Source: Bacteriovoracaceae bacterium (GTDB lineage Bacteria > Bdellovibrionota > Bacteriovoracia > Bacteriovoracales > Bacteriovoracaceae). From it: 25,504 nucleotides of DNA. Positions 5,819-20,013 of the stretch are shown in pieces (position 1 is the first letter of the stretch; every line of letters starts with the position of its first letter). The notes beneath the pieces are model-generated. The model was not told where the DNA came from. It saw only the letters and a program-made list of their open reading frames with translations, and did not search any database. Location: positions 1 to 25,504 of the forward strand of contig JBFGZE010000044.1 of assembly GCA_041586955.1 (NCBI GenBank), given 5' to 3'. Made by a program: the position numbers and the translations under genes.

Positions 5819-6076
5819 CTAGAGGTAATCGATGGTAATAATAATATCCTGGGTAGGTGAACTTTGATTACTTAATTCGAATGGAGATATTTGGCAACTC
5901 ATAATATCCTGATTAACAACGCATTTTTGGCAATGACCTCTCCCAATGCAGCTACTGGCAATAGGAATATTGTGGCGCTGGAGAATGCCCATCAGGTTTT
6001 CGTGCTCATTTTCTTTAGGGATTGTTAGCTCCAAGATAACCTGAGAGGAGGCCAGCCCCTTGATGACTAATCGCAT
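5819..6076 (-). CDS. Small 2Fe-2S ferredoxin-like protein
   Basis: IPIASSCIGRGHCQKC...MSCQ gives C-x5-C-x2-C plus a distal Cys. Confidence 0.82.
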   Translation of the reverse strand: MRLVIKGLASSQVILELTIPKENEHENLMGILQRHNIPIASSCIGRGHCQKCVVNQDIMSCQISPFELSNQSSPTQDIIITIDYL

Positions 6077-7314
6077 AAAAGATGTGTTGGTTGTCTCTCA
6101 TCGATAACTAAGCTGGACTCCTTGTTTTTCCAAATTAGTCCCCATACTTCACCAATTTTTCTGGAATGATATGGGTTTAGTTTGGTGGAAAGAATACGAT
6201 CAACTTCTTGACTGGGGAGAGATTGTGACTCAAATATATAGCGGCTAGGATTAGTCGTTTTAATATGACGTGCCTGTTTCAATAACTTTATTAAGCTCAC
6301 TTTATCGTGGCCAATGACAGCTTCGTCCATCGTTAGCTGGTGAAGGATTTGGCCACTATCAGGACCACGTAATGAAAAAAGGGCCATTTGTGATGTTTCA
6401 TTTTTTTGATGGCAAAAGGACAAGGGAGTGAGAGCGTTTTTAGATATCAATGGGCCTTTTGGAGAGTTGACTTTGATAAAATCTGGGCCATTACTTGTAA
6501 CACCGACAAATATTTTGTTCTTAAAGATAAGAGAGAAAATATTAAAATTGGAATCCCATTCTTTTGAGTTTACAACAACTTGGTGATCGTAGAGGCCAAA
6601 ATCAAGGTTGCACTTAAGACCTTTTTTAGAAGTGGGGAAAAGGGGTGGGGCAAACTGCTTTGTGGATACGCCCGTTTGAAGATTATTTTTCATAAAGGGT
6701 AATAATTGAAATCGTTTGAAAGTTTCTCCAACGTTGAGTGGTTGTCCTGCCCGAAAAAATAGACCTTCGAGGGCCTTCTTTTTTTGAGTAAAGAATGGTG
6801 ATGACTGATTTTCTTGAAGAAAGTGCGATAGGTATTGATCAACCTTGATCCTGTCAGGTAAACGCCCCTCTATATGGCGCGTGAGTGAAAGCAGAGGGTT
6901 TACGCCACCTGCAAGGTGTTGGAGTCCGATTAAAAATGGCCATTTGATTGATTGGTTTTTTTCCATCAAATTATTAAAGTCATTGGCCTGAAATTTATCC
7001 TTATCTACAATGAGATAATAGAAGCGAGAACCTGGGGTGGTTGTCTCGGGCCTAAAATAAAGCTGGGTTAACGCCAATATTGCAGCGGCCTTTTTAAAGG
7101 AAATATTAGGATGACGTTTTAAATAATCCAATAAAAACGTATTCGCTTGTAGGGACTTGGAGCCTATACTAAGTGCTGTATTTGCTTCGCAGGAAACTTT
7201 AGCATTGGCGGGAACAATCTCAACGCTCTTTTGTTCTGAGTTAATAAGGTGAACAATGCTACTGCAGCTGACTGAAAGGGCAAATATAAAAGGAAGAACA
7301 AATTGAACTTTCAT
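6067..7314 (-). CDS. Hypothetical lipoprotein
   Basis: 415-aa ORF with signal MKVQFVLPFIFALSVSC. It overlaps both neighbours, and no domain was recognised. Confidence 0.7.
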   Translation of the reverse strand: MKVQFVLPFIFALSVSCSSIVHLINSEQKSVEIVPANAKVSCEANTALSIGSKSLQANTFLLDYLKRHPNISFKKAAAILALTQLYFRPETTTPGSRFYYLIVDKDKFQANDFNNLMEKNQSIKWPFLIGLQHLAGGVNPLLSLTRHIEGRLPDRIKVDQYLSHFLQENQSSPFFTQKKKALEGLFFRAGQPLNVGETFKRFQLLPFMKNNLQTGVSTKQFAPPLFPTSKKGLKCNLDFGLYDHQVVVNSKEWDSNFNIFSLIFKNKIFVGVTSNGPDFIKVNSPKGPLISKNALTPLSFCHQKNETSQMALFSLRGPDSGQILHQLTMDEAVIGHDKVSLIKLLKQARHIKTTNPSRYIFESQSLPSQEVDRILSTKLNPYHSRKIGEVWGLIWKNKESSLVIDERQPTHLLCD

Positions 7315-7670
7315 AGATCGTTTGAGATCTCTAATTGGGGACCTCGCTCTTCATAGTGGAGGGCCTGTTCAGTGTGGCCAAAGCTTTCAGGAAAATTATC
7401 AAGGTTTAATTCTTGAGCTTTTAGATTTAATGCCTTTAAAGTGAATAAAACCCACATACCCGACCCCGATTCTCCTGTATGTGATTGAGTTTGAACATTA
7501 AGGATCTCAAAACCTTGATTAACAAAATGATAGAAGATTTTATCAAATTCTTTTTCTCTATAGCCGGTTTTTCTACGAGGTGGCGCCGGAATATAATAGG
7601 TAAATGTCTGAATTTTAAAAGAATCTCTTCCCAGTATAAAATTATAGGCCCTTTTAAAATGTTTAAACAT
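7311..7670 (-). CDS. Hypothetical protein
   Basis: 119-aa ORF with an AAGGA SD. Its stop overlaps the next start (ATGA). Confidence 0.7.
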   Translation of the reverse strand: MFKHFKRAYNFILGRDSFKIQTFTYYIPAPPRRKTGYREKEFDKIFYHFVNQGFEILNVQTQSHTGESGSGMWVLFTLKALNLKAQELNLDNFPESFGHTEQALHYEERGPQLEISNDL

Positions 7671-7953: not shown

Positions 7954-8565
7954 CTATAAGGGCAACTTTAAGTCTTGCTCTACAACCCCTGGTGCCAGTT
8001 TAATAACATCAAAGGTTTTACCATTGGGAGTAAAAAGGCCTTTGTCTGTGACAACTTTATGAACAACACTCAAACCTGTGAGAGGTAGTTCGCATAATTT
8101 TTTAAGTTTGCTTTCTCCTGCTTTATTAAAATGAGTCATCATGATAATCACTTCTTTGGCCCCGTTGACCAAATCCATTGCACCACCCATACCAGTTACT
8201 TTTTTTCCAGGAATCATCCAATTGGCGAGGTTACCTTTAGTATCCACTTCCATTCCGCCCAGGACACAGAAGTCTAAATGCCCGCCACGAATCATGCCAA
8301 AGCTGAGGGCGCTATCAAAGAAGCTAGCACCTTTGGCAATGGATATTGTTTCCTTTCCGGCATTGATAAGTGTAGGGGAGACTTCATCTTTTGCAGGTCT
8401 TCCCTCGACCCCTAGTACACCATTTTCAGAGTGTATAATAATATCTAATGTTTTGGGGATTCTTTCTGCGATAATCGTTGGTAGACCAATCCCTAAATTA
8501 ACAGAGCAGCTATTGGAAAAAAGGGAGATGACTTCATCGGCCATTTGGTTTTTATTCCAACTCAT
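7954..8565 (-). CDS. scoB: 3-oxoacid CoA-transferase subunit B
   Basis: Motifs VNLGIGLPT, SENG (catalytic Glu), IRGGHLD, GNLANW and GMGGAMDL. Confidence 0.93.
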   Translation of the reverse strand: MSWNKNQMADEVISLFSNSCSVNLGIGLPTIIAERIPKTLDIIIHSENGVLGVEGRPAKDEVSPTLINAGKETISIAKGASFFDSALSFGMIRGGHLDFCVLGGMEVDTKGNLANWMIPGKKVTGMGGAMDLVNGAKEVIIMMTHFNKAGESKLKKLCELPLTGLSVVHKVVTDKGLFTPNGKTFDVIKLAPGVVEQDLKLPL

Positions 8566-9260
8566 TATTGATCCTTCGTTACGAGGTATTCGATTTCGTT
8601 TTTATAGTTTTGACCTTGAAAGATTCTTTGGACAAAAATGCCCGGCAGGTGGACATCTTCGGCCGGTATTTCCCCAAGTTCGACCAATTCTTCGACCTCA
8701 ACGATGGTGACTTTTGCGGCCATGGCCATGAGAGGAGAGAAGTTACGAGCGGTTTCTTTAAACCATAGATTGCCAAAGGTGTCGCTTTTTTGGGCCTTAA
8801 TAATCGCAAAGTCTGCATGAAGCGCCTCCTCCAAAATGCAAGGGCGATCAAAGGTTTTGACCTCCTTGCCCTCGGCGATCAAGGTTCCAACTCCTGTTGG
8901 GGTATAGAAAGCGCGGATACCAAGTCCCGCGGCACGGATACGCTCTGAAAAGGTTCCCTGGGGGATCAATTCTACTTCCACTTCACCGCGAAGCATTTGT
9001 TCTTCTAGATCAGGGTTTCCCCCGACATAACTACAATAGGCCTTTGATATTTGATGATTTTTAAGTAACTTAACTAGGCCACGACCGGAGTTTCCTATAT
9101 TATTAGAAATAATGGCAAGCTCTGTGAGATCTTTCCGCTGCGCTAGAGCATCGATACAATTTTCAGCAATGCCGCAAAGTCCGAAACCTCCACTCATCAA
9201 GGTTTGACCACTTTTAATATCAAATATGGCCGACTGAGCGTCTTTAAAAATTTTTGTCAT
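8565..9260 (-). CDS. scoA: 3-oxoacid CoA-transferase subunit A
   Basis: Motifs GGFGLCG, ISNN, SYVG, PQGTFSERIRAAG, FYTPTGVGT and VHLPGIFV. Confidence 0.93.
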   Translation of the reverse strand: MTKIFKDAQSAIFDIKSGQTLMSGGFGLCGIAENCIDALAQRKDLTELAIISNNIGNSGRGLVKLLKNHQISKAYCSYVGGNPDLEEQMLRGEVEVELIPQGTFSERIRAAGLGIRAFYTPTGVGTLIAEGKEVKTFDRPCILEEALHADFAIIKAQKSDTFGNLWFKETARNFSPLMAMAAKVTIVEVEELVELGEIPAEDVHLPGIFVQRIFQGQNYKNEIEYLVTKDQ

Positions 9261-10444
9261 GATTTCCTTCCTTGAATGATGTCGCTTATGATTTTCATAC
9301 CACGCTGAAGATCATTGAAAGGCATATTTAAGGCCGGTGCGACGATGAGGTTTTTGGGAGCAGTAATCATATAGAGCCCGTGCTTTAAGAATGTGCTCCA
9401 TTCGACATCAATAGTTAAGGCAATATTGGCAATCATGCCAATGTTTCTAATACTGCTAACCTGGGGCAATTGTTCTAAAAGTTTTAGATGGCCGGTAAAT
9501 TGACTGATCAATTGATTAAGATGAGGTAAAAATTCTTGCTGGTTGATTAAATTTTGTGTCCCAATTCCTGCGGCCAAAGTCAAGGGGTGCCCATAATTTG
9601 TAAGTCCGGCCGGAAGTATATGTTTATCAAAAAAATCTGCAATAGAAGGAGTCGTCCAAACGGCGCCGAGAGGGGCCATCCCGCCACTTAGCGCCTTGGC
9701 CAAGCAAATAAAATCGGGTTTTAAAAATGGGTAATGATGAAAACCAAAGGCCTTGCCGGTACGATAAAGTCCACAGACGACCTCGTCGAGAATGAGAAAT
9801 ATATTAAACTCATCACAGAGATCCTGGATCCCTTTATACCACATCTGAGATGGAATGATGACACCATTTCCGCCGGTAATTGTTTCCAAACAAATCGCAG
9901 CGATATTTTCTGGCCCATGATCGAGAATTATTTGGCGGGTTTGACTGAGAGTCGGATCATTTTCTGGCTCCGGAATGCGAACCGTCCACTCATCAACTGT
10001 GCTAATCGCCTGATTGCGCCAATCCCCACTAATACTAATCGCGCCAAGGGTAGCACCATGATAGGAGTTTTTTCGCGCTAAAACTTTATTTTTTCCTTTA
10101 ATGAAGCGTGCCATCTTAAGCGCATTTTCAATGGATTCTGCACCTGAAAGTGTGAAGAAAATTTTCCCAGGCCTTTCAATTTTATCTATTAGAGAGTTGG
10201 CGAGACTCTCTTTTTCGGTAAAAATGGCCTTCGGTGATGCCGCCAAAAAGCGGTCAGTTTGTTCTTTGATGCGGTCAATAATGATTTGTGGGGAGAGTCC
10301 AAAGGATAGGTGATAACTGGTGGAGACCATATCCAAAATTGCCTGGTCATCTTCTGTTATATAATGAAATGCATCGACCCCTTTAATTTTAAAGCAATTT
10401 GCCATACTTTGATTTTGCCAAGTTAAGTAAAAGGGGGAGCTCAT
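9257..10444 (-). CDS. Class III PLP-dependent omega-aminotransferase (beta-alanine/taurine transaminase-like)
   Basis: Motifs FFTLSGAESIENALK, SYHGATLGAISISGD, ILDEVVCG, LAKALSGG (PLP Lys) and GLTNYGHP. Confidence 0.9.
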   Translation of the reverse strand: MSSPFYLTWQNQSMANCFKIKGVDAFHYITEDDQAILDMVSTSYHLSFGLSPQIIIDRIKEQTDRFLAASPKAIFTEKESLANSLIDKIERPGKIFFTLSGAESIENALKMARFIKGKNKVLARKNSYHGATLGAISISGDWRNQAISTVDEWTVRIPEPENDPTLSQTRQIILDHGPENIAAICLETITGGNGVIIPSQMWYKGIQDLCDEFNIFLILDEVVCGLYRTGKAFGFHHYPFLKPDFICLAKALSGGMAPLGAVWTTPSIADFFDKHILPAGLTNYGHPLTLAAGIGTQNLINQQEFLPHLNQLISQFTGHLKLLEQLPQVSSIRNIGMIANIALTIDVEWSTFLKHGLYMITAPKNLIVAPALNMPFNDLQRGMKIISDIIQGRKS

Positions 10445-11557
10445 TTATTCCTTCCTACGAAAAGTTTTTTTTCCAGCGTTGTCACTAATGGTAAAATGAT
10501 ATTCTTTATAATTGTCGTCATAAGTTGGGCAGCCTCGCCAAAAAGAGGAGATCCCATCGCTTAAGTTTGCAATGCCACCCCCACAAGTTGTTGAAGGGTC
10601 TTGGGCACCAGATTCATAATGTGAACAAAGGCTCATTGGATAGTTATCGTGGTTTTGGAATAAGTTCTTAAGGTCAGAAAGGGTTCGCACTTGATTTGCT
10701 TTTTCTGTTAATAATTCAAATCTTTTATGAGTTGTTGAGCTGATGGAGTCTTTCATTTCCATAGTTTGAATCACGTCACCTAGGCAATGATTGGTGTGAA
10801 AAGCGTAAGGTTTGTCAGCACTAGTTTGGCCAACACATTCAGAATGGTTTGGAGTGACTTCCCAGTGCTCTCCAATAGATGGGTCAGAGACGATATAATT
10901 ATGGCCGCTCGTTACTGGAGAGTTTTTGAGCATATCGTCCATTTCTCTGACAGATTGTTTTTCGAGTAGTGCACGAACAAAGACTGGCCAAATGATCCCC
11001 GCTTTGGCGTTCTGAGTATTAATATTATTAACGCCGACTAGGCAATTGTTGGTGTTGATCCCCATTAAGGCCGGACAACCTACCAATGATAAACAAAGAA
11101 GTTCGGAGCTTTTATTTGTCTCTGGGACACGAATAAGACAAAGAAAATCTTTTGCTGATTGGTGCATATCCCATGTTTGACCTGACAATTCACCTTCCGG
11201 CGTGCGAATATGCATGGTGGAGCACCCTTCCTCGGGCAACTCAATATCTCTAAAGTCTGTGTAGTTATTGAGAATGACTATCTCTTCTAAAGAAAGATTC
11301 GCACCTTGGCGGATACCTTCTAATTCGTCACACCAATGAGGCGCAAAATCTTTAGTCACGTCCCATTGGGCCTGGGCCAAGGGCGCCAGGTGATTTTTTA
11401 AAAGAGGGTTTTTGTTTAACATAAGCTCTTGTCGAATATTCGCTAACTCTCTTATGCTCTCGCGAAAGGCCTCGCCGTGGGCCAGACCCCACTCAAGAAA
11501 TGTGTCACCATATTTGTATTCTATAAAAGGGAAACCTTGGTCCATGTTTTTATCCAT
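10445..11557 (-). CDS. Peptidase C45 autoproteolytic Ntn acyltransferase/hydrolase (isopenicillin-N acyltransferase/Tan family)
   Basis: N-terminal WGLAHGE, autocleavage site G111-C112 (EEG/CST), GQTWD and HTNH. Confidence 0.88.
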   Translation of the reverse strand: MDKNMDQGFPFIEYKYGDTFLEWGLAHGEAFRESIRELANIRQELMLNKNPLLKNHLAPLAQAQWDVTKDFAPHWCDELEGIRQGANLSLEEIVILNNYTDFRDIELPEEGCSTMHIRTPEGELSGQTWDMHQSAKDFLCLIRVPETNKSSELLCLSLVGCPALMGINTNNCLVGVNNINTQNAKAGIIWPVFVRALLEKQSVREMDDMLKNSPVTSGHNYIVSDPSIGEHWEVTPNHSECVGQTSADKPYAFHTNHCLGDVIQTMEMKDSISSTTHKRFELLTEKANQVRTLSDLKNLFQNHDNYPMSLCSHYESGAQDPSTTCGGGIANLSDGISSFWRGCPTYDDNYKEYHFTISDNAGKKTFRRKE

Positions 11558-14500
11558 TTGTTATCATTTTGGAAAATTGTTGCATTTGAGCTAATGAAGG
11601 GCATACAAAGTAGGTTTGCCCCTCTTTTTTAAAGTACGGTTGATAATGAAGTGGGCAATTTCCTGTAAATTGTCCTTTCCCCCGGTGGAGGAAAATATCG
11701 CTTATACCGAACTCTGTGAGTTTAAGGCGTAAGTCTTTTTCAAATGTATCAATGATACGATTCATTTTCTCGTGATTTTGGTGCCAGCGGTCACAGTATT
11801 GATGATAGAGTGCCATGGCCAACTCATCTCCATCCCAAGTAGAGATCATCATGAGTGGTTTTTCAAGAAAGAGATGATCTTCGATAAAGACCAATGCCCC
11901 TTGACCTCCTAGCCAGAAAAAGCCTCCGTCTGGTGTAATTTCCGGATCGCTTGCAGCGAGGAAAGTGTCTTGGTGATAATGGTAAGCTTTAGAAGCCGTT
12001 TCATTATAGAGTAGAGGTGTCTCATATTTTGTGGCCAACCCTCTTAAACCTTTTAAGAATTCTTTGGGGACAGGTTTAAGAATGTTTTGAGGTAAGGGCT
12101 CAATCCAGATTGCTAAATATTGTTCCTTTTTGAGTTGATCTTCTACACTTTTTAGAACTTGTTGAAAGTTTTCAGTGGTAGGGGTTTCCATTTGGTCGAC
12201 GTCAAAGTAACCAGGTTCCTTATCACAGGTATTTCCTAGCGAGCGACTTAAGAAAGAACCATTACCAAAATGATGACCTTTAAACGTTAAATGCTTGGCC
12301 GATTTTTTCTGCTTAAACCAAATTGTTTTCGCCAATTTATCAACACATTCTGATTGTCCACTGGCGGTAAAACCATGGCGGAGTGACTCTGGTAATAAAT
12401 TGAAAATAGACTCAACGTGAGTTAGGAATTTTTCAGACACAAAATTAGATAAGCAAACTTTATTGTTAATTATTGGCATTAACTCTTTTATTTGTTCTGC
12501 CGTCATTTGTTCCATTCGATGATGAGAATGATGGCCATTCGATAGGTTAATTGATTCTTCTTGCCATTGGGTCTTAATTTCATAAAAGAGAACATCGCGA
12601 TGTTCCTCAAAGTCTGGGTAGTCCTCGGGCATATAGAATAATTCGGTAGCACCTAAAGATTGGTTGATGGCGAGCATACTACCAGCAAGGCGATCTCTGT
12701 TGCGTCCTGTTATTTTTTGAATACCTTTGGAAATGGCAATGGCGATGAGGGCAGATTTAATTTTGCCGCCCATTGAGCGACCTTGGAAATCTGGCCGAAC
12801 AGTCGCATCGAGCATGTAGAGCGCCTTGGGGTTATTAAAATCTGGATCTCGTCTGATACCTCTTTCCAGAGGAGTTAAGGACATTGGTCCGGCAAAGGTC
12901 ATTGCCTTGATAATTCCTTTTTGGCAAAAAGCGAGGGCAATTCCATTTTGGTTCTTGGCCACAGCTTCAAATTTTTCAATGTTGGTTTGTCTGGTCACTT
13001 CATAGACTTGCTCTTGGATTTCTTGAATTTGGCCTTTGAATTGAGAAAAGTTTTGCCCATCTATGACGACTAATTCAATTTCTTCATCTGTGACGAGAAG
13101 ACCGTTAATATGGGCGATGACTTGATCCATTTGAGGCAAATTACCTTGTAATGACTTAAGTTTTAGCTCTGTTAGGTATTCATGCCATTGGTAAAGTGAT
13201 TGAGCACTTTTATTTTTAGTGGCCGCCATTTGTGGTCGCGTACCTTCTACTTGATTAAAGATTTCATTACACAAGGTATCGAGTTGCTCGAATAGGAACT
13301 GGAGGTCTTCTGTTTTGTACGCCGTATTGAGCCTAAAGCGCAGAGTATGTGATCCTGCAGGATAATAAAGAAGTCCAAACTCAAAACGTTTAGCAATAAA
13401 TGTTGGGATAAAATCCTTATTTTTAAAATCAAAGGCAAAGGCCATTCCTTGAAGGCGTGGGCATTCGATATGATCACTATATTTGGTAATTAATTGGTCG
13501 AGCTGTTGTCTGGTTTCATTTTCCAATTGATGGATCTGTTTTTGCATTTGATCGAGGGCCAGCCCATGAGAGAGCCCCCTGATAAGAGAGGCCACCTGAA
13601 ATTCCATTTCTCCTAGGGGAATCGCCGTAGAGCGATGGGGAGATAAAACCATACCGACTTGCGCCTTTTTGGCACAGGTGACGTAATCGGGAAGAAGTGG
13701 TTTGCCAAATTGGTCTTGAAGATTAAAGGCCTTATGCCAAAAAAACTCACGGCCTAAATGAAAACCAGTTTGGACTTCATCATAAATAAGGGGGATATTA
13801 TGGGTGCGTGCCATAATTAAAAGGGCGGTGTGAAAGCGATTGGTACTATAGCGATCTCCACCTTCACATTGCATTGGCTCGATAATTATTGAAAAGACCT
13901 CTTTACTGTCTATGATTGATTTAACCTTTAATAGTGAGTCGATTTCTTTTTCGATTTGAGGGTCTTGTAATAATTTTTTATTAAAGGCCGACTTGGTAAT
14001 AGCGGGGTTTTCCCAATTTTGATGCCAGTCTTGCGGAATTGTGTGAGTGATTTCATCGCCTTTGTACTCGGGGTAGGGCGCGAAGATCGCCTCATGACCT
14101 TCCCAGGCAAAAGGTTCTCTCTTACTTGGGTTCCATGTGGCCTGAAGAGACATCAGCATTCTGCCGTGGAAGGAACCTTCAAAAGCAAGAATTTTTTTCG
14201 CTTCAGGGTAAACTCTTGAGCTATAGCATAGGCCGAGAGCTGTTTCATTGGCCTCCGCACCTGAGTTTGTATAGCGCGAGTAGACTCTCTCCCAATTAAG
14301 TTTTCTTTTGAGAAAAGATTGGCACCCCTTATGGACCTTTAAAATGTTTTTTGAATTAGGGTTATTGGTATAGGATTCCTGAAAATGGGCCGGGGCCATT
14401 AATGGCATGGCGTTAAAGCCTAATCCTAATGTGGCGATCTGACTAGCAGCATCCATCATATAATGGGTCATGCCATTTGGAGCTTGAATGGCCATATAAG

Positions 14501-14633
14501 GGCCAATGGAATTTTTCAAATCAGTGAGATAGGCCTTCTTTTCAGCAGGTATCATATCATTGGCGTAATGTTTGGCCAATATTTCCTTGGCGTAGTTTTC
14601 GCTTTCTTGATTGATGAGTGGTAAATTTTCCAT
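11550..14633 (-). CDS. Three-domain fusion: Lat/GABA-AT-like class III aminotransferase + GNAT acetyltransferase + catalytically degenerate second aminotransferase domain
   Basis: Residues 1-460 carry SGAEANE, SFHGR, EPMQCEGGD, DEVQTG, AKKAQVG and TLRFR. Residues ~515-690 carry GNAT motif A TVRPDFQGRSMG. Residues ~695-1027 carry SGQSECVDK, IWIEP, NETAS and ISTWDG. Confidence 0.85.
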   Translation of the reverse strand: MENLPLINQESENYAKEILAKHYANDMIPAEKKAYLTDLKNSIGPYMAIQAPNGMTHYMMDAASQIATLGLGFNAMPLMAPAHFQESYTNNPNSKNILKVHKGCQSFLKRKLNWERVYSRYTNSGAEANETALGLCYSSRVYPEAKKILAFEGSFHGRMLMSLQATWNPSKREPFAWEGHEAIFAPYPEYKGDEITHTIPQDWHQNWENPAITKSAFNKKLLQDPQIEKEIDSLLKVKSIIDSKEVFSIIIEPMQCEGGDRYSTNRFHTALLIMARTHNIPLIYDEVQTGFHLGREFFWHKAFNLQDQFGKPLLPDYVTCAKKAQVGMVLSPHRSTAIPLGEMEFQVASLIRGLSHGLALDQMQKQIHQLENETRQQLDQLITKYSDHIECPRLQGMAFAFDFKNKDFIPTFIAKRFEFGLLYYPAGSHTLRFRLNTAYKTEDLQFLFEQLDTLCNEIFNQVEGTRPQMAATKNKSAQSLYQWHEYLTELKLKSLQGNLPQMDQVIAHINGLLVTDEEIELVVIDGQNFSQFKGQIQEIQEQVYEVTRQTNIEKFEAVAKNQNGIALAFCQKGIIKAMTFAGPMSLTPLERGIRRDPDFNNPKALYMLDATVRPDFQGRSMGGKIKSALIAIAISKGIQKITGRNRDRLAGSMLAINQSLGATELFYMPEDYPDFEEHRDVLFYEIKTQWQEESINLSNGHHSHHRMEQMTAEQIKELMPIINNKVCLSNFVSEKFLTHVESIFNLLPESLRHGFTASGQSECVDKLAKTIWFKQKKSAKHLTFKGHHFGNGSFLSRSLGNTCDKEPGYFDVDQMETPTTENFQQVLKSVEDQLKKEQYLAIWIEPLPQNILKPVPKEFLKGLRGLATKYETPLLYNETASKAYHYHQDTFLAASDPEITPDGGFFWLGGQGALVFIEDHLFLEKPLMMISTWDGDELAMALYHQYCDRWHQNHEKMNRIIDTFEKDLRLKLTEFGISDIFLHRGKGQFTGNCPLHYQPYFKKEGQTYFVCPSLAQMQQFSKMITNG

Positions 14634-14641
14634 AAGGGCCT

Positions 14642-15640
14642 CTATGATGGAGAAAGGGTTAGGTTTATTTTTTCTTCTAGAAATTGTTGATAAGAATGAC
14701 CATGGTTCTCTAATAAAGTTGGAAACATGGAGATTGGGGTATGACCAGGAAAGGTATTGATCTCATTAATATAGAATTGCCCATCTGTGGTCAGAAAAAA
14801 ATCGATTCTTGCTAGGTCTTTGAGCTTAAGTCCTTTAAAGGCCTTGATGGAATTGATCTGAAGTGCCTCAATAATTTCAGGAGTTAAATTCGGTGCTGGA
14901 CAAAGCGTCTTAGTATGACTTTGCTTACTGTATTTTTCTTCATAGGTGTAAAAACCTTTAGGGCAAATAACTTCACCTGGTTGGGTCGCGATGACTTTAT
15001 TTTCAAATTCATAGGTCGCGATTTCCAATTCTCGACCTATAATGGTTTTTTCTAATAGGACGTAGGGTGATAAGGCCAATGCTTTTCTCAGCGCCGGTAC
15101 TAGTTCATCGGCATCCGTCACATGGTAACAACCAATAGAAGAGCCCTGGCTTGATGCTTTAACAAAAATATCACCATACTCCTTAAAGAAAGTGCTTGCC
15201 TTGTCGATTTCATCAGAGTCTAAATTATTGATAAAACAAAATGGCGAATTGGGAATATCCAATTGGGTCAACCATAACTTTGTAGAGATTTTATTAAAAC
15301 AAAGAGTACTTGCTTCCGGACCACTACCAAGATAGGGAAGACTCATTAACTCAAAGACACTCTGGATATGACCTGTCTCCCCTGGTGGGCCATGAAAGCA
15401 CGGTATGGCAAAGTCGAGGTGGTACTGACCTTCATTGGTTGTAAGCGTTTTATCTTTTCTAAGCTCGACCTCAAGACCTCTAGCATCAACACGAGTTCCG
15501 TCTGGTTTTATTTCTACCCAATGGCACCGGGTATTAGGGATTGCATCCAATTTTTCTTGGAGGAAGCGGGCAGAAATTAATGAAATGTCGTGCTCGCTAC
15601 CACCGCCTCCACACATGAGGAGGATATTTTTGTCTGTCAT
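14642..15640 (-). CDS. ddl: D-alanine--D-alanine ligase
   Basis: Motifs GGGGSEHDISL, HGPPGETG, KASSQGSSIG, FYTYEEKY, RIDFF and NEINTFPG. ATG 15640 has an AAGGA SD. Confidence 0.95.
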   Translation of the reverse strand: MTDKNILLMCGGGGSEHDISLISARFLQEKLDAIPNTRCHWVEIKPDGTRVDARGLEVELRKDKTLTTNEGQYHLDFAIPCFHGPPGETGHIQSVFELMSLPYLGSGPEASTLCFNKISTKLWLTQLDIPNSPFCFINNLDSDEIDKASTFFKEYGDIFVKASSQGSSIGCYHVTDADELVPALRKALALSPYVLLEKTIIGRELEIATYEFENKVIATQPGEVICPKGFYTYEEKYSKQSHTKTLCPAPNLTPEIIEALQINSIKAFKGLKLKDLARIDFFLTTDGQFYINEINTFPGHTPISMFPTLLENHGHSYQQFLEEKINLTLSPS

Positions 15641-15661
15641 GAGCAATCCTTTGTCCTTTAG

Positions 15662-17410
15662 TTAGCGAAGGGCATCCGGCATTTTTTGGGCGCTGAGCTC
15701 ATCAAACTTAGCGTTAAGTTCCTCAATCGATAAAGACTCCGAACTTCTCTCTCCATAGGCCCGAATACTAACTGTTTTTTCTTCCATTTCACGATCCCCT
15801 ATAACTAGCATAAAGGGAACTTTTGCTTTTTGAATTTGACGAGTCTTATAGCCCATCGTTTCGTTGCGATCATCGACTCGAATACGGAAGCCTTTTGACA
15901 TCCACTTTTGGCAAAGGTCATTGGCGTATTCTAAGTGCTGTTCATTATTAACAGGGACAATGACTGCTTGTTCTGGAGCTAACCAAAATGGAAAGGCACC
16001 TGCAATATGTTCTAAGTAAACGCCAAAAAAGCGTTCTAATGACCCTAATAAGGCGCGATGGATTACAACGGGACGCTCGTCATTTCCTTCAGCATTCGTA
16101 TATTTAAGGTCAAAACGTTCAGGCAGCTGAAAGTCTAATTGTATTGTTCCCAATTGGTAGTAACGCCCTAAAGCATCAGAAATTTCTACATCTATTTTTG
16201 GCCCATAGAAAGCACCATCACCTTCTTTAATCGCATAGTCATGACCACTTTTTTCCAGTGCCGACCTTAAAGCGTTTTCGGCCTTGTCCCATGTTGCATC
16301 GTCACCGGCCTTTTTTTCTGGGCGAGTGGATAGATTGACCTTTATATTTGGGAATTTAAAATGGTTATAGCAAACGAAAAACATTTCCATTAGGTTAACG
16401 ATTTCTTTTTCTATTCCATCGATGTCGATAAATATATGGGCGTCATCTTGGCAAAAGGTGCGCACGCGAGTGAGTCCTCCCAGGGCCCCAGCTTTTTCGT
16501 AGCGGTGAAGGCGACCAAAATCGGCATAACGAAGAGGGAGGTCTCTATAGCTGTATTTATAATGTTTAAACATCAGCATATGGCAGGGGCAGTTCATTGG
16601 TTTTACTGCATATTCACGCTCATCGATATTAGAAAAGTACATATTCTCTTTGTAGTGAGCGTAATGACCGCTTGTATGCCATAGGTCTGAATCAAGAATT
16701 TGGGGAGTAATGACTTCATCGTATCCAAAACGGTGATAAATTCTTCTCATGAAGTCGACCAATTCATTATAAACTGTTGCACCCTTAGGCATAAAAAACG
16801 GAGAGCCAGGTGCAACTGTTTCGAAATGAAATAACTCCAATTCTTTACCTAGTTTACGATGGTCTCTTTTCTTTGCCTCTTGAAGGAATGTTAGATAATC
16901 CTTTAATTCGTTGCGGTCAGCAAAGGAAGCAGCGTAAATCCTTTGAAGCATTTGGTTATTGGAATCCCCACGCCAATAGGCACCTGCAGTGTGGAGCAAT
17001 TTAAAACTCATAGGTAATTGAGAGGTGTTTTCAACATGAGGTCCACGGCATAGATCAATAAAATCACCCTGTTTATAGCACGTGATTTCATCACCTTCGG
17101 GAATCGCTTCAATCAATTCTACCTTGAGGGTTTGGCCTTTATCTTGAAAAAAACGAATGGCCTCATCCCGTTGCATGACAATTCTCTCAACCGGGATTTT
17201 CTCTTTGATAATTGCTTTCATTAACTTTTCGATTTTTTTAAGGTCTTCATCTGTTAGGCGATGATCCATATCAATATCATAGTAAAAGCCATTATCAATG
17301 ACAGGGCCAACTCCAAATTGAACATGACTATCTGGCCATAATCGTTCAATTGCTTGGGCCATGAGGTGCGCACTTGTGTGTCTAATGGTATCAATATCGA
17401 ATTTTGGCAT
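15662..17410 (-). CDS. thrS: Threonine--tRNA ligase, short form without N-terminal TGS domain
   Basis: Motifs RHTSAHL, DLCRGPH, RDHRKLG, KPMNCP, GAFYGPKID and IHRALLGSLERF. ATG 17410 follows a GGAG SD. Confidence 0.97.
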   Translation of the reverse strand: MPKFDIDTIRHTSAHLMAQAIERLWPDSHVQFGVGPVIDNGFYYDIDMDHRLTDEDLKKIEKLMKAIIKEKIPVERIVMQRDEAIRFFQDKGQTLKVELIEAIPEGDEITCYKQGDFIDLCRGPHVENTSQLPMSFKLLHTAGAYWRGDSNNQMLQRIYAASFADRNELKDYLTFLQEAKKRDHRKLGKELELFHFETVAPGSPFFMPKGATVYNELVDFMRRIYHRFGYDEVITPQILDSDLWHTSGHYAHYKENMYFSNIDEREYAVKPMNCPCHMLMFKHYKYSYRDLPLRYADFGRLHRYEKAGALGGLTRVRTFCQDDAHIFIDIDGIEKEIVNLMEMFFVCYNHFKFPNIKVNLSTRPEKKAGDDATWDKAENALRSALEKSGHDYAIKEGDGAFYGPKIDVEISDALGRYYQLGTIQLDFQLPERFDLKYTNAEGNDERPVVIHRALLGSLERFFGVYLEHIAGAFPFWLAPEQAVIVPVNNEQHLEYANDLCQKWMSKGFRIRVDDRNETMGYKTRQIQKAKVPFMLVIGDREMEEKTVSIRAYGERSSESLSIEELNAKFDELSAQKMPDALR

Positions 17411-17524
17411 ACTTAGGGCTCCATCAAAGAAAAAAATCACCTATTTTGGCAAAGTAACATATCAATGGAGTCCTTATAAATCAATGAGTTAAAATGACCT
17501 TTTTACATAGAAATCAGAAGGTTT

Positions 17525-17554: not shown

Positions 17555-17601
17555 AATATTGCCTACCGGCATAAGGAAGAGGGGAACACTAGGGAGTGGA
17601 T

Positions 17602-18879
17602 ATGACCCAGATTCAAGGGCATGAAGAATTAAGAAACTCGGTTCATTTAGGAAGCGCTTTAGGTGTTATTCCAGAGGGAGATCATCTTCTCGGTGAATCA
17701 CTTGAAATCAGTTCGTATGAATTAGGGAAATCTCATTATCAATTGGGCAAAATTTATTACGATAAATCTGACCTAGGAAAAGCTGAAACTCATTTTATTA
17801 AGGCCCTCAGTTTCACAGAGGAACCTCGCGATTATTATTCAAAATTTAAAATTTTAGGTTTTCTTATTCGTATCGCCTCTGAGCAATTGGATGACCATAA
17901 GGCGGGCCTGTATATTCAGGATGCTGATAATATTGTTGAAAAAATGAGTACGGCCTTAGGCACTCTTAACGCTGAATATTTTTATAATGTTGGCATCGTG
18001 AATAATTATAAAGGGGATTTTGATCAAGCTAGAATCCAGTTCGAATTAGCGCATAAAAAGTCACGTGAAGAAAATGAGCCTGAGCTATTGTCCAAATGTC
18101 TTCTTTCTTTGGCCGTCAATTGCTTTAATAGAAGAGAATTTGAAAAGTCCTTAGCGTATTTAGAGCAACTAGGGGAGCTTTTAACTATTATTAAAAAGAA
18201 TTATTTATCGGGCGCCCGCTTTTTATTTGCCGCAAAAGTATATAATGAAATGGATGACTCTAAAAAAGCTCTCGACTTTTATCGCTTGGCCAACCAAACC
18301 CTTCAGGGGAAAAAATGCTGGAATTTATACGGTTATATTTTACTTGGTAAAGGTGTTGTTTTTAAGAGAAATGGTCAGTACGACCAGGCCTTAACTTTTT
18401 TTGAGTTAGCAAAAGAGTCGACTGATGCCCGTGTTTTTAAACGCTTATCTCAGTTAATTGATTCTGAGATTCAAGATGTGAATGATAGTAGTGTTGATAT
18501 ATATTTAGACCGTGTTAATCGTAAGATTAAAGAGCGTACTCTTGGAACAATAGATTTTAAGCACCGCTTTATTCTCTTGGAAATTTTATTTTTATTGGCC
18601 AAAAATGCTGGCTCTTATTTTGATAAAGAGCAACTGGCGAAATGTATTTGGAAAGATGAATACAACCCTCTAATTCATGACAAATTGATTTATACTTCTG
18701 TTAGTCGCCTTCGGAAATTAATTGAACCTAAAAATGATTCAGGGGTCAAAAGGAAGTATATTGTCCGTGGAAAAGACGGCTATACATTTAACCCCATGGT
18801 TAAAATTCGCTTTCAGCAAGAGACAAAACCCCAGACTCAGGGTGCTATTGGTAATATCGAGCTTGGTTCACCTGTTTAA
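17602..18879 (+). CDS. TPR-repeat protein with C-terminal OmpR/PhoB-type winged-helix DNA-binding domain
   Basis: TPR-like helices (YQLGKIYY...AETHFIKAL; YNVGIVNNYKGDFDQA; LGKGVVFKRNGQYDQAL). The C-terminus reads KEQLAKCIW...IYTSVSRLRKLIE...YIVRGKDGYTF. ATG 17602 follows GGAG. Confidence 0.85.
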   Translation: MTQIQGHEELRNSVHLGSALGVIPEGDHLLGESLEISSYELGKSHYQLGKIYYDKSDLGKAETHFIKALSFTEEPRDYYSKFKILGFLIRIASEQLDDHKAGLYIQDADNIVEKMSTALGTLNAEYFYNVGIVNNYKGDFDQARIQFELAHKKSREENEPELLSKCLLSLAVNCFNRREFEKSLAYLEQLGELLTIIKKNYLSGARFLFAAKVYNEMDDSKKALDFYRLANQTLQGKKCWNLYGYILLGKGVVFKRNGQYDQALTFFELAKESTDARVFKRLSQLIDSEIQDVNDSSVDIYLDRVNRKIKERTLGTIDFKHRFILLEILFLLAKNAGSYFDKEQLAKCIWKDEYNPLIHDKLIYTSVSRLRKLIEPKNDSGVKRKYIVRGKDGYTFNPMVKIRFQQETKPQTQGAIGNIELGSPV

Positions 18880-18916: not shown

Positions 18917-18946
18917 TTGAATAGTAGGCTTGATTACCCCTATAAT
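18917..18946 (+). promoter_or_regulatory. Putative sigma70 promoter
   Basis: TTGAAT (18917-18922), 18-bp spacer, TATAAT (18941-18946). Confidence 0.6.
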
Positions 18947-18971
18947 GATGGTAGGCCACAGTGGGGATTTT

Positions 18972-19517
18972 GTGATTACCAAAATTTTGATAATACTTTT
19001 ACCTCTTTACTTCAGTCAATTGCTCGCCAATGATTGGAAAAATAAGGACTTCGATAAGGGGGATTTGGCCCTTTTTCGAATTCCTGGGAAAGTCGTCTTT
19101 TATAGTGAGTTTAAAAATTGGCATTACGCGGTGAGCGCTTATCAATGCCAATGGCCAAACGGCCATTTATTGCCTTTCATTGGCCACCAAATAGACAATC
19201 AGAAGGTAGGTTTAAAGGCCAATTATCAGAAACTGGCCGATATTAAACCCCTAATTTACCAAATGGTTTTATTTGAAAAATTGAATCAATTTGCACGGAA
19301 ACAGGGCCATGGCATTTATCAGACAGAGGTTAAGCTTCAAAAAAAATGTGATGCCTTGGTTACAGGGCCTATGATACGTGCCTATATCATCGAATTGGTT
19401 AATCTTGAGCTATTTTTACAAACTAAGTCGCAATCTAATAAATCAAACCAGCTCGAATTGATGAAAAACCTTCTTGGTAGTATTTCCAAAAAGATTACCC
19501 ATGAATTCTTATTTTAA
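18972..19517 (+). CDS. Hypothetical exported protein
   Basis: The likely GTG start at 18972 lies after GGGGA and downstream of the promoter. Signal-like N-terminus ITKILIILLPLYFSQLLA. Confidence 0.65.
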   Translation: MITKILIILLPLYFSQLLANDWKNKDFDKGDLALFRIPGKVVFYSEFKNWHYAVSAYQCQWPNGHLLPFIGHQIDNQKVGLKANYQKLADIKPLIYQMVLFEKLNQFARKQGHGIYQTEVKLQKKCDALVTGPMIRAYIIELVNLELFLQTKSQSNKSNQLELMKNLLGSISKKITHEFLF

Positions 19518-20013
19518 TTATCAATTGCTTTATTGGGGCCAATTGGCCAATAATTGTCAATTGAGCGCCTGGCAGAGGCAGATCATTGAATTGGATCAGG
19601 AGATGAATACTCCATGGACTGAATCCACCTGGAGTGGCTTAGATAAATCACCCCGTCATTATCAATTGTTTCTAATGGTTCACAAGGAAGATTTTCGATT
19701 GGGTGGCCTGGCCCTATTTGAAGTTGATCAATTTGAGGGACTCGCCCATTTATTGAAGATTGTTATTGCAAAGCGACTTAGGGGTCAGGGGTTAGGTAGG
19801 TCTTTTTTTGCGGATACATGCTTGTTTTTGGCCTCAAAAGCTTTCAACAAGGGTTATTTAGAGGTTGATTGCGAAAACCATGCGGCGATAAGTCTTTACA
19901 AAAATATGGGTTGGCGCGTTCATCGCATCGCAAGAAAGTTTTACCAAAATGGTCATGATGCCTATATAATGCTGCACAGTAATATAAAGGTTTTTGATAA
20001 GGGGCTTGATTAA
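19501..20013 (+). CDS. rimI: RimI-like GNAT N-acetyltransferase
   Basis: Motifs HLLKIVIAKRLRGQGLG, YLEVDCENHAAISLYKNMGW and RKFYQNGHDAYIM. Confidence 0.8.
   Translation: MNSYFNYQLLYWGQLANNCQLSAWQRQIIELDQEMNTPWTESTWSGLDKSPRHYQLFLMVHKEDFRLGGLALFEVDQFEGLAHLLKIVIAKRLRGQGLGRSFFADTCLFLASKAFNKGYLEVDCENHAAISLYKNMGWRVHRIARKFYQNGHDAYIMLHSNIKVFDKGLD

Follow-up and report, generated by a model that had tools for sequence, protein, structure and literature searches.

A single-chain protein from a Bacteriovoracaceae bacterium with a predicted live and a degenerate class III aminotransferase half around a divergent GNAT domain

The textbook form of a fold-type I enzyme dependent on pyridoxal 5'-phosphate (PLP) is a symmetric homodimer in which two active sites are shared. 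A gene on contig JBFGZE010000044.1 of a Bacteriovoracaceae bacterium (assembly GCA_041586955.1; the 25,504 nucleotides analysed are called the window below) raises the question of how such an enzyme is built when two aminotransferase-like halves lie in one polypeptide and one of them has no catalytic lysine. The gene is a single uninterrupted open reading frame (ORF) of 1027 codons, and its present annotation, "class III aminotransferase", overlooks two thirds of the 1027-aa protein. An initial annotation, made from the sequence alone, had read the product as an asymmetric single-chain dimer with one active site, the elements of which were divided between two aminotransferase copies separated by a GNAT domain. 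In this study the fused live and dead aminotransferase halves are confirmed and the earlier interpretation is partly supported. The C-terminal half (hereafter C-domain) probably pairs with the N-terminal half (N-domain) and completes its single active site. All motif positions given in the initial annotation were correct, namely FHGR 155-158, DEVQ 285-288, AKKAQ 321-325 and GEMEF 341-345 in the N-domain and NNKVCLSN 723-730, NETAS 877-881, WLGGQG 907-912 and ISTWDG 930-935 in the C-domain.

The protein consists of an aminotransferase domain, a two-helix linker, a GNAT domain and a degenerate aminotransferase domain; the coordinates of these and of the motifs discussed below are listed in Table 1. 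Conservation was counted in an alignment of 123 homologues with 28-49% identity, and invariant runs were counted in 53 closer homologues; counts out of 123 or 53 refer to these sets. The linker is the least conserved segment of the protein, with 29% identity to the alignment reference.

The N-domain was matched by the Pfam family Aminotran_3 (PF00202) over aa 58-451 with an E-value of 1.1e-36 (126.9 bits against a cut-off of 30.5). Its closest solved relative, found with a profile of 48 homologues, is the lysine epsilon-aminotransferase (LAT) of M. tuberculosis (2cin/2jjf, E 1e-23). Residues 13-459 of the full-length AlphaFold2 model were superposed on 2cin by VIA-align with Z 33.2 and a root-mean-square deviation of 2.6 Å over 400 aligned residues. 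Against the L-lysine 6-transaminase equivalog of NCBIfam (TIGR03251) the N-domain scored 78.2 bits, below the cut-off of 520.8; because this score is so far under the cut-off, the N-domain is regarded as LAT-like yet not as a LAT orthologue.

The PLP pocket of LAT is described as being formed on the first subunit by Gly128, Ala129, Phe167, His168, Glu238, Asp271, Val273, Gln274 and Lys300, and the pertinent part of the report names only Asn328, Ser329 and Thr330 as contributed by the other subunit (PMC9780415). Arg170, Arg422 and a Glu243 switch are also described there (PMC9780415). In YgjG, Thr332* reaches the PLP phosphate of the partner (PMC4244111). By hidden Markov model (HMM) alignment, the cis set of LAT maps to G125, A126, F155, H156, R158, E252, E257, D285, V287, Q288, K322 and R432 of the N-domain, and the cis positions counted were kept in 120 to 123 of the 123 homologues. 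The claim that the N-terminal copy retains the cis catalytic residues was thus borne out: D285 is kept in 123/123 and K322, the predicted Schiff-base lysine, in 122/123, F155 and H156 in 123/123, and the whole F155-H156-G157-R158 motif is invariant. The Glu243/Arg422 switch pair and Arg170 of LAT are also present in the alignment, as E257, R432 and R158.

The canonical trans loop, which carries Ser and Thr in LAT, has a variable, gap-rich counterpart in the N-domain (aa 332-346), and this is also the block of the domain with the lowest predicted local distance difference test (pLDDT) in the full-length model, 81. The statement that GEMEF lies where STWGG should be was upheld in part. The profile alignment made with hhalign, together with the start of the following helix in the AlphaFold2 secondary structure (347 in the N-domain, 937 in the C-domain), puts the STWGG equivalent at aa 337-346, which includes GEMEF and agrees with the claim within a few residues; HMMER alignment against LAT places it elsewhere, as an insertion or at ASLIRG 348-353, so that the register is ambiguous. 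No conserved Thr was found at aa 337-346 or at position 350 of the N-domain; position 350 is Thr in 5/123 sequences.

The C-domain is much less easily recognised from a single sequence. When the window's own C-domain was scanned with Pfam at E<=10, Aminotran_3 was not matched and the only two matches, Nudix_hydro (0.051) and DUF3880 (0.082), were weak and unrelated; BLASTP of N-domain against C-domain was marginal (E 0.036). Comparison of the two domain profiles by hhalign gave a probability of 94.7% and an E-value of 5.9e-8 over 147 columns, with D285 paired to N877, K322 to L908 and Q325 to Q911. A C-domain profile of 41 sequences had 151 matches in the PDB at E<=1, the best at 9.8e-11, and almost all of the 60 matches listed were class III fold enzymes. 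C-domain-only fragments of distant relatives were matched by Pfam above threshold (P0269, 2.9e-13; P0232, 4.9e-11). The C-domain is homologous to class III aminotransferases, far beyond chance, and the family-level evidence is decisive.

Structure prediction gave the same result. The C-domain alone was modelled with pLDDT 92.2 and a predicted template-modelling score (pTM) of 0.91. Foldseek matched the model to class III enzymes at E ~6e-15 with probability 1.00 and TMq 0.70-0.75, and VIA-align gave Z 27.7-28.6 over about 320 of its 327 residues. Among the matches listed, the identity was highest with 2cin (19%, Z 28.2), where the C-domain spans LAT residues 64-440; about 63 N-terminal residues of the canonical fold are missing. 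The C-terminal region is therefore predicted to have the fold-type I class III fold that the initial annotation had assigned to it.

Two further claims, that the C-terminal copy has lost the catalytic residues (NETAS for DEVQT, WLGGQG with no Lys) and that it retains ISTWDG and NNKVCLSN, both hold across the family. Position 877, at the place of the pyridine-N aspartate, is never Asp in the 123 sequences (Asn in 97, His in 13, other residues in the rest), and position 908, at the place of the Schiff-base lysine, is never Lys. No invariant run in the protein is longer than PLMMISTWDGD (926-936), which corresponds to the trans loop N328-S329-T330-W-G-G of LAT; 10 of its 11 columns are invariant in the 53 sequences. 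S931, W933 and D936 occur in all 123 homologues and T932 in 122 of them, and T932 aligns with the Thr of GGTYAGSP in 6wop, a GABA aminotransferase. The second retained element, N724-F731, is near-invariant (7 of 8 columns in the 53 sequences) and aligns with NKPSNSDV of LAT. In omega-transaminases an NKPSNSD-type segment may act in trans.

A decaying duplicate that is kept only for folding or solubility, and whose motifs reflect the constraints of the fold, would be consistent with two properties of the C-domain: its lower conservation (42% mean identity to the alignment reference, against 51% for the N-domain) and the loss of about 63 N-terminal residues. We consider such a vestigial or structural remnant very unlikely. 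In the C-domain 38 columns are invariant across the 53 sequences, its motifs can be followed to homologues of 28% overall identity, and the fold alone does not dictate PLMMISTWDGD, because the loop varies in other class III enzymes (GGTYAGSP, STWGG). A regular class of truncated forms without the C-domain was also not found: 29 short matches (144-553 aa) stand against 287 long ones, and since they are few and irregular in length, and lie mostly on short contigs, they are read as fragments.

The complementary pattern, with cis residues in the N-domain and trans elements in the C-domain, was found in 122 of the 123 homologues and again in ten more distant relatives of 1074-1759 aa. Complementary retention and loss between the two copies is thus deeply conserved, as had been proposed. 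The initial annotation had also derived the halves from an internal duplication, for which support was not obtained: the N-domain (E 6.6e-9) is not nearer to the C-domain profile than is AT2 (E 1.4e-10), a stand-alone class III aminotransferase encoded two genes downstream.

One of the 123 homologues, P0189 (1024 aa), is the only one without the N-site K322, which is replaced by Glu; it has also lost E257 and Q288. Its C-domain has lost T932, K725, P926, L927 and Q911, and its GNAT motifs are intact. To judge from these residues, P0189 may have shed the transaminase function and kept the acyltransferase. Although a single case, the joint loss of the N-site Lys and the C-loop Thr would amount to a natural experiment that points the same way, to pairing of the N-domain with the C-domain (N:C pairing).

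The middle domain is accepted as a divergent GNAT, and the claim of a GNAT between the copies is carried by the family more than by the window's own sequence, which matched PF00583 below threshold (E 0.048, with 14.4 bits where the cut-off is 20.7). PF00583 was matched by 27 of 48 homologues, the best at 2.5e-7. The GNAT-region profile had weak matches in the PDB (best 0.083), 12 of 13 being GNATs or related acetyltransferases, most of them at the motif A region, and the neighbours of the middle domain in a language-model comparison were GNAT clusters (0.91). The acyl-CoA pyrophosphate loop of GNATs has the form Q/R-x-x-G-x-G/A between b4 and a3. In the window the motif A region between strand b4 and helix a3 reads Q617-G618-R619-S620-M621-G622, and ten distant relatives have Q/R/H-x-x-G-x-G at this place. 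The element order of aa 519-687 in the full-length model, b1-a1-a2-b2-b3-b4-a3-b5-a4-b6-b7, is what we take to be the GNAT topology.

In the arrangement that we favour, the N-domain would be a catalytically competent class III subgroup-II (LAT/GABA aminotransferase-like) omega-aminotransferase that uses 2-oxoglutarate/glutamate. The C-domain, a truncated class III fold, would stand in for the second subunit of the obligate dimer; its Ser931-Thr932-Trp933 loop would reach over the interface and complete the single PLP site of the N-domain, and the segment N724-F731 would probably reach across too. Each N:C pair would then have one active site, and each chain would bind one PLP. Pairing would be simplest within one chain, and a head-to-tail swap between two chains would be equally workable. 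The GNAT domain would use acyl-coenzyme A (acyl-CoA) for N-acylation of the amine substrate or product. Judged from residue conservation and the models together, N:C pairing with one site is probable.

The full chain was modelled from the 123-sequence alignment with pLDDT 95.7 and pTM 0.95 (pLDDT 94.9-95.7 over five models). A pTM of 0.95 for parts of 470, 230 and 327 residues means that the three domains are confidently placed relative to one another, and the chain is predicted to be one rigid assembly. The Thr-loop blocks 921-930 and 931-940 rise from pLDDT 87 and 78 in the isolated domain to 93 and 92 in the full chain.

The chief competitor is a conventional homodimer of two N-domains (N:N) that works without a trans Thr, the C-domain being a non-catalytic ligand-binding or regulatory module; its dead pocket might bind PLP or pyridoxamine 5'-phosphate, the phosphate of acyl-CoA, or substrate, or the C-domain might serve as a scaffold for the GNAT. 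LAT and YgjG, both solved class III enzymes, are reported as homodimers (PMC9780415, PMC4244111). The N-domain aligns to LAT over 400 residues with its N-terminal part included, and several positions that line the pocket in canonical enzymes are retained in the C-domain (S758-G759-x-S761-E762, K766 and E845). Such a homodimer would, however, leave unexplained why conservation in the protein is highest in the loop that serves the partner's cofactor in canonical dimers, and why this loop has decayed only in the homologue without the N-site Lys, P0189. The monomer pTM of 0.95 also argues for a rigidly docked, not a loosely tethered, C-domain. We therefore think the N:N arrangement unlikely. N:C pairing is favoured over it because the partner-serving loop is invariant in the domain that lacks the Lys and degenerate in the domain that bears it.

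Several observations weigh against N:C pairing as set out above. We infer the canonical-dimer geometry and the contact of T932 with the phosphate from pTM and from residue logic, and AlphaFold2, when run on a single chain, would join the N- and C-domains even if the real pairing were between chains. The N-domain is a full-length aminotransferase, N-terminal segment included, and might in principle form homodimers. To our knowledge, the trans Thr is unproven as essential in every class III enzyme. Mean-field direct coupling analysis of 245 full-length sequences (effective number 145, 330 columns) placed 49 of its top 100 pairs between domains, against an expected fraction of 0.50, and was judged to be noise because inter-domain pairs occurred at the chance fraction. 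As to the acyl transfer, the window has S620 where its relatives have Gly and its Pfam match is sub-threshold, and GNAT catalysis is thus putative. The dead site, finally, carries S758-G759-Q760-S761-E762-C-V-D765-K766 (SGQSECVDK), the counterpart of the canonical SG(S/T)E phosphate loop, in which E762 and K766 are kept in 123/123. Judged by its residues, this motif would suit the binding of a ligand no less well than a purely structural role, and a model in which the C-domain is purely a trans donor does not explain why it would be retained in a pocket without Lys and Asp.

The same residues (S758-G759-x-S761-E762, K766 and E845) are the ground for a more elaborate reading, an obligate intramolecular pseudo-dimer in which the dead pocket is reused and the three domains form a channelling machine. 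The dead pocket may then hold acyl-CoA or CoA phosphate, a second non-covalent B6 vitamer or an N-acylated intermediate, and GNAT, dead site and live site would be joined in one continuous chamber, in which an acyl-protected amino-aldehyde would be passed between the two chemistries. We regard this as distinctly unlikely in full.

The principle of one live and one dead half, and its single-chain form, have precedents. SerTA (Ser4/Ser5) of Serratia sp. ATCC 39006, with which such a pair of live and dead subunits was structurally described for aminotransferases as late as 2024, is an active/inactive fold-type I heterodimer with one site, in which the inactive chain touches the PLP phosphate through Asn189*; its authors call it the first heterooligomeric aminotransferase studied (PMC11726168). 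As in the protein from the window, an active chain is joined by a shortened homologue without the Schiff-base Lys and the pyridine-N Asp; the inactive partner of SerTA lacks regions at its N- and C-terminal ends (PMC11726168), and the C-domain lacks about 63 N-terminal residues. SerTA consists of two polypeptides of sugar-aminotransferase type, the products of tandem genes, without an acyltransferase, and its interface has been solved (PMC11726168), whereas the present protein has class III halves in one chain, with a GNAT between them and a predicted interface. Human serine palmitoyltransferase is thought to have a single site, since LCB1 is without the PLP lysine, and other catalytic residues are said to be supplied by it (PMC3794620). 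In most coccolithovirus (EhV) genomes the LCB1 and LCB2 subunits are fused in one gene (PMC5371807). The viral fusion is, like the protein studied here, a fold-type I pseudo-heterodimer in one polypeptide with a Lys-less half; it differs in being a membrane-associated member of the alpha-oxoamine synthase family, not of the aminotransferases, and in having no domain inserted between its halves. In both sequence and structure the N-domain is best matched by LAT, with which it has the cis set and the switch pair in common; LAT also shares the STW-G and NK..S motifs with the C-domain, but it is a 449-aa homodimer with two equivalent sites.

In a literature search and among the matches listed for solved chains, no class III example, no enzyme inserted between the halves and no description of this family was found. 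Likewise, when the whole model was compared with 48,161 chains by VIA-align, none of the matches listed was a two-domain match over both aminotransferase-like domains, the longest covering 413 residues. The arrangement of live and dead aminotransferase halves in one chain has so far been rarely described. If the pairing is true, the family would represent an asymmetric class III dimer in a single chain, natural and widespread, with a second enzyme between its halves. Evolution having already separated cis from trans residues, it would allow a clean test of which half of a PLP dimer interface is really needed. It could also serve as a template for engineering single-chain transaminases.

Homologues of the protein numbered 287, of about 1020-1030 aa, and where source labels are given they name Bacteriovorax, Halobacteriovorax and related Bdellovibrionota lineages; one group of 1099 aa is labelled Myxococcota. 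A search with the C-domain returned 220 cluster representatives, in most of which it is the C-terminal part of a protein of about 1000-1760 aa, the rest being shorter and fragment-like. In full-length relatives the N-domain, GNAT and C-domain (together, the module) are always fused. Among 201 sampled genomes of the window's phylum the module was matched in 43, within frames of 970-1446 aa except for 736 aa in one fragmented assembly; by family, the matches fell in 23 of 35 genomes of the window's own family, 14 of 20 of a second and 1 of 1 in each of five others, and in none of the remainder. Four relatives of 1625-1759 aa (P0227, P0245, P0249 and P0266) carry the module with the same residue pattern. 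In P0227 and P0245, the two that were scanned with Pfam, an N-terminal aldehyde dehydrogenase precedes the module, and this fusion hints, in the Rosetta-stone sense, at an aldehyde as the product of the aminotransferase. One genome (G090) has two copies of the module (L066, L067), one near C45, AT2-like and CoA-transferase genes, the other without C45 and adjoining ftsW/murG-type cell-wall genes.

In the window the gene belongs to a same-strand array which runs, from upstream to downstream, threonyl-tRNA synthetase (ThrRS, 15662-17440), Ddl (14642-15646), the target gene, a C45-family protein, AT2 and the CoA-transferase subunits A and B. The C45 gene overlaps the target by 8 bases, and its product is an autoproteolytic acyltransferase/hydrolase of the isopenicillin-N acyltransferase-like type, matching PDB 2x1d (isopenicillin-N acyltransferase) at 1e-21. 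The order Ddl-target-C45-AT2-CoA-transferase A-B was found in 35/35 Bacteriovoracales loci with full flanks, and ThrRS in 31/35. Twelve distant loci, from other families of the phylum and with modules of 29-37% identity, were also compared. C45 lies directly downstream on the same strand in 11/12 of them, an AT2-like gene is nearby in 5, a CoA-transferase in 3 (L067, L070 and L072) and a thiolase in 1. C45 is therefore the constant partner of the module, being present in 35/35 close and 11/12 distant loci. Ddl and ThrRS were considered as functional partners and rejected, since the synteny of close relatives (35/35 and 31/35) does not extend to the distant loci, where they are near the module in 0/12.

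The neighbourhood also bears on whether the C-domain might pair in trans with another aminotransferase, such as AT2, and not with its own N-domain. AT2 is co-located in all 35 close loci and an AT2-like gene occurs near 5 of the 12 distant ones. AT2 is closest to taurine:2-oxoglutarate aminotransferase and has its own Lys and Thr loop in the alignment, and so looks like a self-sufficient homodimer; it is missing from 7/12 distant loci, and the N-domain is always fused. Pairing with AT2 is hardly credible on these grounds, and pairing with the N-domain of the same protein is retained as the preferred explanation.

Protection of amines by acylation is known from the arginine succinyltransferase pathway (AstA-E) and from acetylated arginine biosynthesis (ArgA/ArgD/ArgJ), where an N-acyltransferase is combined with a class III omega-aminotransferase, an aldehyde dehydrogenase and a deacylase or acyl-transferase. 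The module and C45 make up a similar toolkit; no component here is orthologous by NCBIfam cut-offs, and the comparison concerns pathway logic alone. GNAT, omega-aminotransferase, aldehyde dehydrogenase (in some fusions), acyl-amide transferase/hydrolase and CoA-transferase suggest, tentatively, an acyl-protected amine pathway. In such a pathway the GNAT would N-acylate a basic amino acid or diamine so that the amino-aldehyde formed by the aminotransferase cannot cyclise, the aldehyde would then be oxidised by the aldehyde dehydrogenase that is fused in some relatives, and the acyl group would be removed or passed on by the C45 acyltransferase/hydrolase. No Rfam family was matched in the window, and hence there is no riboswitch clue to the substrate. 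If true, the module, C45 and CoA-transferase would offer a way into an uncharacterised acyl-CoA-linked amine pathway of predatory Bacteriovoracales and Myxococcota.

Table 1. Positions in the window of the aminotransferase-GNAT-pseudoaminotransferase gene, its domains and motifs, and the genes downstream
Feature	Coordinates	Strand	Basis
Whole gene, 1027-aa AT-GNAT-pseudoAT protein (AT, aminotransferase)	11550..14633	-	ORF list and translation; stop codon 11550-11552
Catalytic N-domain (class III aminotransferase, LAT-like), aa 1-470	13224..14633	-	Pfam, profile, structural alignment
S124-G125-A126-E127, cis PLP-phosphate loop (= LAT Gly128/Ala129)	14253..14264	-	LAT alignment; G125 123/123
F155-H156-G157-R158 (= LAT Phe167, His168, Arg170; ring stacking, substrate carboxylate)	14160..14171	-	LAT alignment
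E257, equivalent of LAT Glu243 "switch"	13863..13865	-	LAT alignment; 122/123
D285, pyridine-N aspartate (= LAT Asp271)	13779..13781	-	LAT alignment; 123/123
K322, predicted Schiff-base lysine (= LAT Lys300)	13668..13670	-	HMM alignment to 2cin/2jjf; 122/123
Loop aa 332-346 (PHRSTAIPLGEMEFQ), variable, gap-rich, at place of canonical trans Ser-Thr loop	13596..13640	-	Column counts, hhalign register
R432 (= LAT Arg422, 2-oxoglutarate carboxylate)	13338..13340	-	LAT alignment; 123/123
Two-helix linker, aa 471-518	13080..13223	-	AlphaFold2 helices 478-495 and 502-513
Divergent GNAT acetyltransferase domain, aa ~519-700	12534..13079	-	PF00583 in homologues, model topology
GNAT motif A region Q617-G618-R619-S620-M621-G622	12768..12785	-	Family consensus Q-G-x-G-L-G
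C-terminal degenerate (pseudo) class III aminotransferase domain, aa 701-1027	11553..12533	-	AlphaFold2, Foldseek, VIA-align, profile vs PDB
N724-K725-V-C727-L728-S729-N730-F731, aligned with LAT NKPSNSDV	12441..12464	-	7/8 columns invariant in 53 sequences
S758-G759-Q760-S761-E762-C-V-D765-K766, counterpart of phosphate loop, in dead site	12336..12362	-	Aligned to SGGSESND of 6fyq
N877, at place of pyridine-N aspartate	12003..12005	-	hhalign pair of D285
L908, at place of Schiff-base lysine	11910..11912	-	hhalign pair of K322
P926-L-M-M-I-S931-T932-W933-D934-G935-D936, counterpart of LAT trans loop	11826..11858	-	Alignments
C45-family autoproteolytic acyltransferase/hydrolase	10445..11557	-	NF040521 1.8e-43
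AT2, stand-alone complete class III aminotransferase	9257..10444	-	Pfam 6.5e-57; 6jix 1.2e-53
3-oxoacid CoA-transferase subunit A	8565-9260	-	TIGR02429 1e-71
3-oxoacid CoA-transferase subunit B	7954-8565	-	TIGR02428 1.1e-75

Other genes of the window were recorded as follows. The Ddl gene of the array is the best Ddl match of the genome, which also has a frame of 681 aa with two tandem Ddl-like C-terminal domains and a further Ddl-like gene of 344 aa (C39:17131-18720, C18:33828-34445). Divergent from the thrS-ddl-target array, on the plus strand at 17596-18879, lies a gene for a 427-aa protein with TPR repeats and a C-terminal OmpR/PhoB-type winged helix (Trans_reg_C) and no receiver domain; this gene is in place in 35/35 close loci and does not occur near the module in any of the 12 distant ones. 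Downstream of the CoA-transferase genes are two overlapping ORFs on the minus strand (6067-7314 and 7311-7670), of 415 and 119 aa, without a Pfam or NCBIfam match and weakly conserved (21-61% identity), which are present in 24/35 and 23/35 close loci, respectively. Three ORFs on the plus strand, of 534, 241 and 195 aa (25-1629, 2146-2871 and 18930-19517), have no Pfam family at E<=1e-4 and sit among housekeeping genes for GATase, SurE, an M23 peptidase, a stand-alone GNAT (19474-20013) and rimP-nusA-infB-rbfA.

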